DNA of 25,121 nucleotides, from positions 1 to 25,121 of the forward strand of contig CAMAJC010000001.1 in assembly GCA_945835425.1 (NCBI GenBank). Direction: 5' to 3'. How positions within the stretch are numbered: position 1 is the stretch's first letter; each line of letters starts with the position of its first letter. Under the pieces are notes generated by a model, which did no database searches, was not told the origin of the DNA, and worked only from the letters and a program-made list of their open reading frames with translations. The DNA comes from an uncultured Clostridia bacterium (GTDB lineage: Bacteria > Bacillota > Clostridia > Oscillospirales > Ruminococcaceae). Shown here in pieces: positions 11,768-22,869 of the stretch. The position numbers and the translations under genes were made by a program.

Positions 11768-14869
<3,102 letters not shown>

Positions 14870-14877
14870 TCATCTCC

Positions 14878-14905
14878 ATATTACCATATTTATGGCAAAA
14901 AGCAA
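14878..14905 (-). promoter_or_regulatory. Possible lacZ promoter
   Basis: Minus strand TTGCTT-16-TAATAT with extended TGg. Confidence 0.4.
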
Positions 14906-15049
14906 GAAGAAACAGATGAATTTTCTGCAAATGCCGGCCGAAAACGCACTATACTATTTGTATAATCCAAATGCCGCAAAATTGAAAATATCCACAGTTT
15001 TTCTCCAGTTTTTTAAAAGTACAATCTTTGAACATATAAAAATCACGTT

Positions 15050-15110
15050 TGTTACATTCAGCGAAACAAAATGTTACTATGACGTAACAGACCGTTTCAC
15101 AAGCTGTTAC
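15050..15110. promoter_or_regulatory. Phased TGTTAC repeats, WalR-half-site-like
   Basis: TGTTAC at 15050, 15072 and 15105 (offsets 22 and 33); TGTTAC-N5-CGTAAC at 15072..15088, which is also the palindrome TGTTAC-N6-GTAACA. Confidence 0.4.
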
Positions 15111-15190
15111 ATTTAAAATTAACACGCTGTAAATTCTTATTTTGCTAAGAAAGGTAGTCAAAATATACAAAAACCATTTCTCCGGTTCAT

Positions 15191-15219
15191 TTGACAGTTT
15201 CTGTGATTCCAGCTAAAAT
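15191..15219 (+). promoter_or_regulatory. sigmaA promoter of the G5/3D gene
   Basis: TTGACA-17-TAAAAT; predicted start about 15226. Confidence 0.85.
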
Positions 15220-15225
15220 ATAGGC

Positions 15226-15320
15226 AACGGTCGAGGAGTATGAGTTGCAGACGCTCCCCGTCGGGTTTTGGATGTCTGAGCGCGTTCGGTGGCTGCCGGA
15301 TGATATCTAAGACAACCGTT
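15226..15320 (+). ncRNA. Candidate structured cis-regulatory leader RNA (riboswitch-like)
   Basis: Closing stem AACGGT/ACCGTT starts at the predicted +1; internal GGAGT/GCTCC; loop CAGAC can pair with GTCTG (15274..15278). Family not identified. Confidence 0.55.
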
Positions 15321-15391
15321 CTGTCACGGAATGGTAAAAATTTTTGAGCGGCGGGTTTCGGCCCGTTAATCAGAAAGGAAGAACACATAAC

Positions 15392-16450
15392 GTGAAGAGA
15401 CTAATATCCAAAATTTCCGGAATGATCTGCGTCATGTTTGCCGGCGTCCTGATGATGAACGTCATGGACGGCGCGGCGGAAACACAATATCTTTTTTATA
15501 TTCAGGACAGCGGTGAGACAGAACTGATTTACTCCGCCACTGGTTCTGTGGAAAAAGCAATGCAGCAGGCCGGAAAGGTTCTGTATGAAGACGATTTCTA
15601 TACGGTGGAAAATACCAGCCGCGATGTTTATACAGTCACGATCACCCGTGCTGATTCCTGCATCGTCGAGGCGGACGGTGAACGGACGCCGGTTTCTTTC
15701 CGCCCTGAGGAGACGACTGTCGGCGAGGTTCTGGCAGAAGCCGGTGTTACGGTCGGTGAAAACGACCTGGTTTCGCTTGGCCTGGACGAACTGGTCAAAG
15801 ACGGTGAAACGATCCGCGTCTCCCGTGTAACGTACGAAAATTATCTGACTGACGAAGTAATCGACTGGCAGTATGATTTTGAGCCGACCCGTTATCTGCG
15901 GGAAGGTGTGATGAAGGTCTTCGCCCAGGGCGACGACGGCGCGAAAACAGTTGAACACCGCAGGACATATGTGGACGGACAGCTGGTCAGCGACGAGGTC
16001 GTAGGCGAGACGGTAACCAAAGCGGTCACCAATGGCCGTGCACAGATCGGCGACAAGGATGCGCCGGTTGATTATCTGGAAGAACCCGAATGGCTGACAT
16101 TTGATGAAAATGGGGTTCCGCAGCAGGCTGTGAAAGTCATATCAGGCCTCGGAACTGCATATACAACAACTGAAGGCGTTTACGGAGCCACCGGCCGGTA
16201 CCTGTCGGAAGGGTATGTAGCGGTTGATCCGAGTATCATCCCTTACGGTACCAAGCTTTACATCAAGACCAAGGACGGTTCTTGGGACTATGGCTATGCC
16301 ATTGCCGCGGACACTGGCGGCGCGATGCTCTCCGGACGGATTCTGGTCGACCAGTATATGAATTCTTACAACACCTGTATGCAGTATGGCGTACGCGAAG
16401 TGGACATCTATGTGTTGGAAGACCTGGATGCCCATGCTGAAATTGACTGA
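15392..16450 (+). CDS. YabE-like cell-wall protein: DUF348 + G5 + 3D domain (352 aa)
   Basis: N-terminal signal/TM; DUF348-like TVGEVLAEAGV; G5 repeat; 3D aspartates in AVDPSIIPYGT, AADTGG and LVDQY. GTG start with RBS AGAAAGGA. Confidence 0.88.
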   Translation: MKRLISKISGMICVMFAGVLMMNVMDGAAETQYLFYIQDSGETELIYSATGSVEKAMQQAGKVLYEDDFYTVENTSRDVYTVTITRADSCIVEADGERTPVSFRPEETTVGEVLAEAGVTVGENDLVSLGLDELVKDGETIRVSRVTYENYLTDEVIDWQYDFEPTRYLREGVMKVFAQGDDGAKTVEHRRTYVDGQLVSDEVVGETVTKAVTNGRAQIGDKDAPVDYLEEPEWLTFDENGVPQQAVKVISGLGTAYTTTEGVYGATGRYLSEGYVAVDPSIIPYGTKLYIKTKDGSWDYGYAIAADTGGAMLSGRILVDQYMNSYNTCMQYGVREVDIYVLEDLDAHAEID

Positions 16451-16475
16451 CATCTCCCCCATAAATATTTCCCGG

Positions 16476-16512
16476 AAAAACGGACATCTGGATTATCAGA
16501 TGTCCGTTTTTT
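16476..16512 (+). terminator. Rho-independent terminator
   Basis: AAAAACGGACATCTG-gattat-CAGATGTCCGTTTTT(T), a 15-bp perfect inverted repeat. Confidence 0.9.
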
Positions 16513-16580
16513 CCGCCCAAAAACTTTTCTTCCATATAATAGGGCACGGATTGGTGTAAAAATATGGATATTCGACAAAG

Positions 16581-16653
16581 TTTACATCTGCTTAACACTT
16601 TCCGAGCCCTAAATATGTTACAATTTAGATACGAATTGTAATCGATTTGCAAT
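16581..16653. promoter_or_regulatory. WalR-like direct-repeat boxes
   Basis: Minus strand TGTTAA-GCAGA-TGTAAA (16581..16597) matches TGTWAH-N5-TGTWAH exactly; plus strand TGTAAT-CGATT-TGCAAT (16637..16653) has one mismatch. Confidence 0.45.
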
Positions 16654-16699
16654 CTTTTGCGGTTTGAAAACATTTTTTGCGGATAATTGTGATTATGCC

Positions 16700-16728
16700 T
16701 TGATTTTTTGTCAGATATGCTGTATAAT
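16700..16728 (+). promoter_or_regulatory. sigmaA promoter of the cdaR-like gene
   Basis: TTGATT-17-TATAAT. Confidence 0.75.
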
Positions 16729-16821
16729 TAGAGCAGATTCTTATGTGATTTGTCAGGCAGAGGGTGAAACGCACTGCCGGCAGCTCAAATCGAATAAACA
16801 AGGGTAAAGGGGTAAAAAACT

Positions 16822-17907
16822 ATGTCAAACCGGCTTTTCCAGGGCGTTGTCCATCAGATGCGCGATGCGATTGACCGCGTGATCGGCGTAATTGACGAGA
16901 ATGCATCCATCATCGCCTGCAGCGAACTTTCCAAAATCGGTACGACCGGGGATTACTACTCGGTGGATTTTGGCGAATCTCACGACCTTTTTGTGCGCGA
17001 CGGCTATACCTATAAGCCCTTCGGCCCGCATATCAAGGCGGACTACGCGGTGTTCGTAGAGGGCACCGACGAGCTCGCAGGGCAGTACGCACAGATTCTG
17101 GCGATCTCCCTGTCCAGCATCAAGCAGTATTATGACGAAAAATACGACCGCAACAACTTCATCAAAAACGTTGTCCTGGACAACATCCTCCCGGGCGATA
17201 TCTTCACCAAGGCGAAGGAGCTCCACTTCAACGTGGACGTCACCCGCGTTGCGCTGCTGGTCCGCGTGGTTTCCACCAACGACGTTTCCGCTTACGATGT
17301 TATCCAGAATCTCTTCCCGGATAAGCAGAAGGACTTTGTCTTCAATATCAGTGAAAGCGATATCGTCCTGATCAAGGAGATCAAGGCCGGCATCGATTCC
17401 AAGGACCTGGAGAAGCTGGCCCGTTCGATCGTCGACACCCTCAGCTCTGAGTTTTATACCAAAGCGATCGTCGGCATCGGCACCAGCGTCGTCGGCATCA
17501 AGGACCTGGCTCGTTCCTTCAAGGAAGCGCAGGTCGCTCTGGAAGTCGGCAAGGTATTTGATACCGACCAGTCGATTGTCAGCTATGACAATCTGGGCAT
17601 TGCCCGCCTGATCTATCAGCTGCCGACCACCCTCTGCGAAACCTTCCTCAAAGAGGTATTCAAAACCGGTTCGATCGATTCTCTCGACCATGAGACCCTC
17701 TTCACGATTCACAAATTCTTTGAGAACAACCTGAATGTCTCGGAGACCTCGAGAAAGCTGTTCGTGCACCGCAATACGCTTGTTTACAGACTGGAGAAGA
17801 TCAAAAAGCTCACCGGTCTGGATCTGCGCGAATTTGACCATGCGATCATCTTCAAGATTGCCCTGATGGTCAAGAAATACCTGAATTCGAGCCCCACAAA
17901 GTTCTGA
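16822..17907 (+). CDS. CdaR/PucR-family transcriptional regulator
   Basis: N-terminal sensor region, degenerate GGDEF-like middle (IVGIGT...LARSFKEA) and C-terminal HTH FFENNLNVSETSRKLFVHRNTLVYRLEKI. Confidence 0.88.
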   Translation: MSNRLFQGVVHQMRDAIDRVIGVIDENASIIACSELSKIGTTGDYYSVDFGESHDLFVRDGYTYKPFGPHIKADYAVFVEGTDELAGQYAQILAISLSSIKQYYDEKYDRNNFIKNVVLDNILPGDIFTKAKELHFNVDVTRVALLVRVVSTNDVSAYDVIQNLFPDKQKDFVFNISESDIVLIKEIKAGIDSKDLEKLARSIVDTLSSEFYTKAIVGIGTSVVGIKDLARSFKEAQVALEVGKVFDTDQSIVSYDNLGIARLIYQLPTTLCETFLKEVFKTGSIDSLDHETLFTIHKFFENNLNVSETSRKLFVHRNTLVYRLEKIKKLTGLDLREFDHAIIFKIALMVKKYLNSSPTKF

Positions 17908-22572: not shown

Positions 22573-22578
22573 CATTCC

Positions 22579-22869
22579 CAGAGGCAATGAAAAGAAATAG
22601 TACGCATTTTCTGACGTGCACAGAGAGCGTCCGGCTGGTGGAAGGGCGCGGCGGGAAAATGGGGAATACCTCTTGGAGCTGCGTCCTGAACCGAAAGCAG
22701 TAGGGATTGCCGGGTCTGCCCGTTACAGCGGAAGGGAATACGGGTTCTGTTTGCAGAACGGTTCTCTGTGAGGCCGGTCATCGTGAGGTGCCGGTAAACT
22801 GAGGTGGTAACACGGATGCCATTTACTTGACATTTCGTCCTCTGTCCTTCATCGGGGCAGAGGATTTTT
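22579..22869 (+). promoter_or_regulatory. Tyr T-box riboswitch leader
   Basis: AG box AGAGAG (22622), GCTGGTGGAA, specifier TAC (Tyr) at 22667..22669, T-box TGGTAACACG (22805..22814), terminator TCCTCTGTCC/GGGCAGAGGA plus T5. Confidence 0.92.

Follow-up and report, generated by a model that had tools for sequence, protein, structure and literature searches.

A conserved structured 5′ leader, predicted to pair with the start of its own coding sequence, precedes a G5/3D cell-wall gene in a group of pig-gut Clostridia

The c-di-AMP riboswitch (ydaO/kimA, RF00379) is found in the 5′ leaders of wall-remodelling genes, including those for muralytic enzymes of the Rpf/3D type. Upstream RNA can also act on expression through its own folding: in the maturation gene of phage MS2 an upstream segment pairs with the initiation region, making translation dependent on folding kinetics, and in the aprE and ermC stabilisers a hairpin a few nucleotides from the 5′ end protects Firmicute mRNA against 5′-end-dependent decay. 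In Bacillus subtilis, the cwlO mRNA is made very unstable via RNase Y (PMC8464778, citing Noone et al. 2014), and yabE, the G5-domain homologue of this species, is lowered by the antisense RNA S25 (PMC8464778, citing Eiamphungporn & Helmann 2009).

Here we analysed the leader of a G5/3D gene in an uncultured member of the Clostridia; the window is the whole stretch of 25,121 nucleotides studied (contig CAMAJC010000001.1 of assembly GCA_945835425.1, forward strand). This leader is a real, previously unannotated cis-acting RNA that lies outside every described riboswitch class. On the model developed below, its appearance is that of a brake on translation and mRNA decay that is built into the transcript, not of a typical metabolite-sensing riboswitch. 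It resembles the c-di-AMP riboswitch in sitting 5′ of a wall-remodelling gene, but its architecture of four hairpins (H1 to H4) plus a clamp is unrelated to RF00379 and gives no Rfam match. Its purpose may be analogous to that seen with B. subtilis cwlO and yabE, namely post-transcriptional control of an autolysin gene; in contrast to these, the leader shares no sequence or structural homology with them, has no conserved antisense promoter, and would work by an intramolecular UTR-CDS clamp that we infer here. As in the MS2 maturation gene, an upstream segment is predicted to pair with the translation-initiation region, whereas the partner here is codons 5-8 and not the Shine-Dalgarno (SD) sequence, and the predicted helix encloses three hairpins. 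As in the aprE and ermC stabilisers, one hairpin (H1) lies within a few nucleotides of the predicted 5′ end. The features of the locus are collected in Table 1.

Table 1. Position of the G5/3D gene, its leader and the neighbouring genes in the window
Feature	Coordinates	Strand	Evidence or remark
GH2 beta-galactosidase, divergent upstream neighbour	11768-14845	minus	
Sigma-70-type promoter: -35 TTGACA (15191-96), 17-nt spacer, -10 TAAAAT (15214-19)	15191..15219	+	promoter scan, 11/12 matches
5′ untranslated leader of the G5/3D mRNA, ~165 nt	15224..15391	+	RNA contigs; covariance model
H1, 5′-proximal hairpin ~3 nt from the predicted 5′ end	15226..15267	+	RNAalifold, covariation
Predicted long-range helix, 5′ strand GTTTTGGATG	15265..15274	+	no invariant run in the leader is longer than its TTTGGAT core
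H2, variable hairpin domain	15275..15313	+	alignments; 15-48 nt among species
H3, conserved 9-bp hairpin ACCGTTCTG / CGGAATGGT, then A-run, then T-run	15315..15335	+	
H4, T-run 15341-47 paired with TCAGAAA 15370-76 abutting the SD; inner stem CGGGT/GCCCG	15341..15376	+	
Shine-Dalgarno AAAGGAAG (15374-81) and GTG start (15392-94)	15374..15394	+	AAGGAA invariant across the aligned leaders
G5/3D gene, secreted YabE/Rpf-like peptidoglycan-remodelling protein	15392..16450	+	Pfam PF03990, PF07501, PF06725
Predicted long-range helix, 3′ strand TATCCAAAAT, CDS +14 to +23, codons 5-8 I-S-K-I	15405..15414	+	
Invariant TCTGC, codons 12-13	15426..15430	+	complements the H1-loop invariant GCAG(R), also the 5′-terminal GCA
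PucR-type regulator (GGDEF_2 + HTH_30), downstream neighbour	16822-17907		

Translation and Pfam assignments place the start of a 352-aa DUF348/G5/3D protein at the GTG at 15392. The order of the GH2, G5/3D and PucR genes is repeated in relatives, and the leader is present before all the G5/3D orthologues at 71-99% protein identity. Every string quoted in the original prediction, made from the letters of the window, occurs where it had been placed, and the consensus promoter it proposed (TTGACA-17-TAAAAT, 11 of 12 matches) proved invariant in all the relatives: the -35, the -10 and the flanking TTTGACAGTTT show no variation in 15 homologous sequences. We also observed that the PucR-type regulator is 97-98% identical in protein sequence between species whose G5/3D proteins share only 71-75%, and that its RNA contigs begin at about 16768-16777.

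The leader is transcribed. DNA of the locus is contained in 18 RNA-labelled runs, most of them pig-gut metatranscriptomes, and contigs assembled from four of the RNA runs (two studies) were mapped onto positions 14300-17100. The contigs start at 15235, 15273, 15238 and 15238, and all extend into the CDS. Moreover, RNA coverage is zero in all four runs both across 14770-15234, the 465-nt upstream intergenic region, and across 16486-16767; these gaps show that the signal comes from RNA and not from DNA carry-over. The contig starts fit a +1 at about 15224-15228 and a leader of about 165 nt that is read through in its entirety; note that the contigs are unstranded and flat in depth, such that a primary transcription start site and a processed end look the same. 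The +1 of about 15226 in the original prediction agrees with three of the four runs, which begin at 15235-15238, and with the lack of coverage of 14770-15234 in any of them. It had named a start site downstream of 15320 as an outcome that would count against it, and all the contigs begin upstream of that position, at 15235-15273. Two other promoter candidates were discarded. One, at about 15045-15060, would read through the GTTAC boxes described below, where RNA coverage is absent. The other, an antisense promoter at 15327-15300 returned by the promoter scan, is not conserved, since its spacing is made by a 6-nt insertion in only four species.

A BLAST search of the leader against 60 related genomes picked up seven congeneric species, at 66-88% identity. 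A covariance model made from eight leader sequences found exactly one copy per genome in 8 of the 15 species of the genus, always before the G5/3D gene. A protein search and contig look-ups added eight loci, bringing the alignment to 14 distinct leaders; one homologue on an ENA scaffold (L099) was excluded because of an internal run of N and an apparently chimeric leader that combines two species' versions. Beyond these, the model found no credible match in 150 family-level genomes from other genera (four marginal matches, none near a G5/3D gene), none in 150 order-level genomes, and none next to 22 distant G5/3D homologues. A metagenome protein scan for wider homologues returned none, a metagenome pattern scan for the leader returned only one promoter, which is unrelated, and a genome pattern scan gave nothing beyond the seven relatives already known. 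A sister clade with 43-45% protein identity retains the promoter, a hairpin before the SD and another that resembles H3 and has the loop motif UCUCACGG; it has neither the UUUUGGAU/H2 module nor the AUCCAAAA codons, and the covariance model did not recognise its leaders. The organisms that carry the leader are uncultured MAGs from one sub-clade of one genus. Conservation of the leader is restricted to one small group of pig-gut Clostridia, the only group in which it was found, and with so narrow a distribution its general importance is limited.

The same arrangement of H1, a variable H2, H3 and H4 emerges from RNAalifold and from the model-based alignment. With a model of H1, H3 and H4, 94% of cells are paired across 15 distinct rows, and compensatory double changes occur in 12 of the 28 pairs, against 5.3 +/- 1.5 in shuffled alignments (0/500) and 2-4 in slid controls. 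H1 has eleven pairs, six of them with compensatory double changes (93% of cells paired), and its apical loop carries an invariant GCAG (15247-50). Two of the seven modelled pairs of H3 have double changes, these in the divergent group formed by L006, L100 and L008. The ten pairs of H4 are 97-100% paired, four with double changes, and have a high base-pair probability in most species. The whole leader folds only moderately better than its shuffles (z = -2.0). On this comparative evidence, H1, H3 and H4 are RNA helices supported by compensatory changes. The leader is transcribed in the mRNA, keeps a fixed position before the orthologues and contains covarying helices, the features by which a structured cis-regulatory 5′ UTR is recognised. 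H2 behaves differently from one species to the next: a 6-nt insertion, shared by this species and three relatives, gives rise to GATATCTAAGAC (GAUAUCUAAGAC, 15302-13), a local decoy partner for the linker that is predicted to form a 12-bp stem when the CDS is omitted.

Part of this fold had been anticipated. The GGAGT/GCTCC stem of the original prediction (its P2) is real and covaries as a portion of the longer H1, the CGGGT-TTCG-GCCCG hairpin before the RBS forms the inner stem of H4, and the covariation that it proposed to look for in homologous leaders was found, together with conservation, for H1, H3 and H4 across the 14 leaders. The closing stem P1 (AACGGT/ACCGTT) did not survive the comparison: 5-7 of the 14 sequences disrupt its two inner pairs, its other positions are invariant letters, and its AAC has another partner, GTT 15265-67, with which it forms the base of H1. 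Neither did the CAGAC/GTCTG pseudoknot, which is 77% paired with no compensatory changes, nor P3 and the alternative 9-bp helix excluding P2, both of which lie within or against the hypervariable H2 and are peculiar to this species. Of its view that the leader is a possibly orphan cis-regulator, what stands is a conserved, transcribed and structured RNA before a wall-enzyme gene; what falls is the P1-closed, pseudoknotted aptamer.

When 40 or 106 nt of the CDS were added to the leader, RNAalifold paired, unprompted and in two alignments, GUUUUGGAUG (15265-15274) with UAUCCAAAAU (15405-15414), a leader-CDS pairing that the original prediction had missed and that is newly recognised in this analysis. 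The predicted helix encloses the RBS and the GTG start plus three hairpins in a domain of about 135 nt. Across the 14 sequences the helix is 99% paired, with a base-pair probability of 0.67-0.96 in every one by partition-function folding, and forbidding it costs 2.7-5.4 kcal/mol in every species. In 13 of the 14 sequences it is also the longest complement between leader and CDS, at a constant position. The two strands stand out by their invariance. Across 13 species, no invariant nucleotide run in the 1056-nt CDS is longer than TATCCAAAAT (only one other run reaches 8 nt), and TTTGGAT in the leader is the exact reverse complement of the core of TATCCAAAAT, a complementarity between invariant runs whose chance in random sequence we estimate at about 4 positions x 4^-7 = 2e-4. 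Among 178 degenerate codons with a conserved amino acid, just 11 columns use a single codon, and these include codons 6 and 7. Synonymous diversity in the 4-codon window at codon 5 is the lowest of 318 windows (0.07 vs a median of 0.46), and among codons 5-7, at this minimum, a rare ATA (12% usage) is conserved. With and without the clamp, the SD core shows no consistent difference in predicted accessibility. Our results suggest that the invariant linker UUUUGGAU between H1 and H2 probably pairs with codons 5-8 (AUCCAAAA), which would close the domain of about 135 nt holding the SD and GUG and occupy the downstream edge of the 30S landing site. A second contact between leader and CDS is possible, between TCTGC (15426-15430) and the H1 loop: the pairing with GCAG is 100% paired, invariant and short (CUGC at 15427-30), and codon 13 TGC is another of the 11 single-codon columns.

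On balance, we favour the reading that this is a lineage-specific structured 5′ UTR which clamps the start region and thereby tunes the translation or the stability of a potentially lytic G5/3D enzyme. The mRNA is transcribed from the conserved sigma-70-type promoter, and its leader folds into the 5′-proximal H1, the variable H2, the conserved H3 and the SD-abutting H4; the linker would pair with codons 5-8 and cover the edge of the 30S site. The clamp and the 5′ hairpin could then hold translation low and control the lifetime of the mRNA, for an enzyme that would be dangerous if over-made, and expression would be set by how often the clamp is open. It may be open co-transcriptionally, before its CDS partner has been synthesised; alternatively, it might be opened by the local H2 decoy in some species, or by a trans factor.

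Other readings of the same leader have to be weighed against this one. The leader could be passive, with H1 and the other hairpins guarding the mRNA against 5′-end-dependent decay, the complementarity between leader and CDS being coincidental and the invariance of codons 5-8 reflecting codon or initiation selection in the signal peptide. H1 does start about 3 nt from the predicted 5′ end, and the long-range helix does not covary, the only changes being from G.U to A-U at its end; note that a helix in which both strands are invariant cannot covary. The per-sequence p-values are also modest, 1-79 of 300 shuffles equalling or exceeding the observed leader-CDS complement, and third-position conservation is raised over all of the first ~105 nt of the CDS (0.67-0.71 vs 0.46-0.59 elsewhere) and not in codons 5-8 alone, so the synonymous constraint could reflect codon selection in the signal peptide or the initiation region. 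However, the longest invariant runs of the UTR and the CDS are exactly complementary, all 14 predicted ensembles contain the long-range helix, its two strands are missing together from the sister clade, and a mere stabiliser has no need of H3, H4 or an invariant linker. We regard a purely passive leader as rather unlikely. It is very improbable that the conserved blocks downstream of the promoter are transcription-factor sites in DNA and not RNA elements. The 190 bp upstream of the promoter are likewise rich in invariant blocks (GTTAC/GTAAC, CTTA-N6-TAAG and the TGCACAAAA box), which places the locus clearly under complex DNA-level control, and the invariant blocks in the leader do not covary; yet the compensatory changes in H1, H3 and H4 are explained only by RNA pairing, the region is transcribed, and an operator made of two inverted half-sites with 130 bp between them would have an unusual geometry. 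We give hardly any credit to a transcription attenuator in which H3 and the T-run act as a conditional intrinsic terminator, with P1 or the 5′ end as anti-terminator. The terminator-like match at 15315-15335, followed by AAAAATTTTT, was flagged by a lenient rule only, and in most species the 5′ strand of H3 can pair with the 5′ AACG. On the other side, an A-run of 3-6 nt lies between the stem and the T-run, which is just TTT in three species and serves as the 5′ strand of H4, the inner pairs of P1 are broken in half of the species, and RNA contigs read through H3 in all four runs. H3 was also rejected as a canonical intrinsic terminator on the same two grounds, the intervening A-run and the contigs that pass through it.

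The leader is not a member of a catalogued riboswitch family. With Rfam 15 at gathering thresholds nothing was found at the leader, the sole match in the window being a T-box; at E<=10, positions 15100-15450 gave nothing credible (one spurious IRES match of 10 bits), and at E<=1 ten homologous loci gave zero matches. The suspicion in the original prediction that this is not a c-di-AMP (ydaO) riboswitch is therefore borne out by the absence of Rfam matches on the leader (E<=10) and on the homologous loci (E<=1), and the Rfam scan it suggested, Clostridia orphan motifs included, found no family for the leader. No riboswitch was found upstream of more distant G5/3D homologues in 20 other genomes. 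As a separate observation, the T-box leader of the window lies at 22578-22845 and is full length (105 bits). Nothing indicates a ligand-binding aptamer in the alignment, in which invariant unpaired letters are few; an aptamer is generally expected to have invariant unpaired letters at the junctions of a multi-helix core that is shared by distant lineages or by several genes, which is not what the leader offers, with an H2 of 15-48 nt, a single copy, presence in 8 of 15 species and none in 300 other genomes. A ligand-sensing riboswitch is unlikely, and distinctly so. There is a small chance that the leader is a genuine switch of an orphan, riboswitch-like kind, in which a metabolite, a protein or an sRNA binds H1, H3, GCAG or UUUUGGAU and toggles the clamp between closed and open. 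We attach a similarly slight probability to a very young factor-responsive switch, in which H1, H3 or the linker would be bound by a signal derived from the wall, or by an RNA-binding protein, and the clamp thereby released or locked; were a switch to be true, the synthesis of a muralytic enzyme would be coupled to the state of the cell wall. A switch would account for invariant unpaired letters that are conserved beyond the needs of the stems (the GCAG loop, UUUUGGAU and ACAACCG...UCACGG), for the decoy of the clamp strand in 4 of the 14 species, which gives two mutually exclusive pairings, and for the retention in the sister clade, despite an otherwise different leader, of the UCU(G)UCACGG motif of the H3 loop; moreover, no known RNA family accounts for the leader. 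Against it speak the confinement to a single sub-clade within one genus, the 150 family-level and 150 order-level genomes having yielded none, the single copy with one gene association, the hypervariable H2, the absence of a multi-helix junction with conserved unpaired letters, the lack of CsrA in all the leader-carrying genomes, and the fact that the only SD-masking alternative costs 6-20 kcal/mol at a base-pair probability of 0. This alternative, pairing of the SD with an anti-SD in the 5′ strand of H3, came from one RNAalifold run and was rejected on those values (ensemble probability 0). Control by CsrA through GGAUGU and the SD was discarded as well: none of the 8 genomes with the leader encodes PF02599 (three of these genomes are 98-100% complete), and the domain occurs only in G011, a genome without the leader. 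Attenuation by a leader peptide was dismissed since no ORF is common to the 14 leaders and their indels are not multiples of three.

The clamp reading that we favour makes a direct prediction: expression should go up when codons 5-8 are altered synonymously, and come back down when the leader is changed to compensate. Peptidoglycan hydrolases need tight dosing, and the locus would be an example of post-transcriptional control of a YabE/Rpf-like enzyme in uncultured gut Clostridia. It also indicates that a 3D-domain gene can have a long structured leader other than a c-di-AMP riboswitch.

Finally, the DNA upstream of the promoter has features of its own. The 190 bp there, including 15040-15190, are almost as conserved as the leader. 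They contain GTTAC/GTAAC boxes at 15051, 15073, 15084 and 15106, among them TGTTAC-N5-CGTAAC at 15072-15088, which resembles the WalR-type direct repeat TGTWAH-N5-TGTWAH, together with a CTTA-N6-TAAG palindrome at 15136-15149 and a (T)ACAAAA box. The blocks in 15040-15190 are probably transcription-factor sites, since the region has no RNA contig coverage. In five loci from other genera and the sister clade (L043, L044, L045, L046 and L047), GGTTACA/GTAACA repeats follow AAACAAA directly past the -10 of the G5/3D homologue, and these repeats are predicted to pair together in the leader RNA; in this window, the string AAACAAA-NN-GTTAC is found as well, some 160 bp ahead of the promoter. An invariant palindrome, TATAC-N5-GTATA at 14948-14968, lies in the half of the intergenic region nearer to lacZ; it overlaps a perfect extended -10 (TTTGTATAAT) and is probably the promoter/operator of the beta-galactosidase gene.
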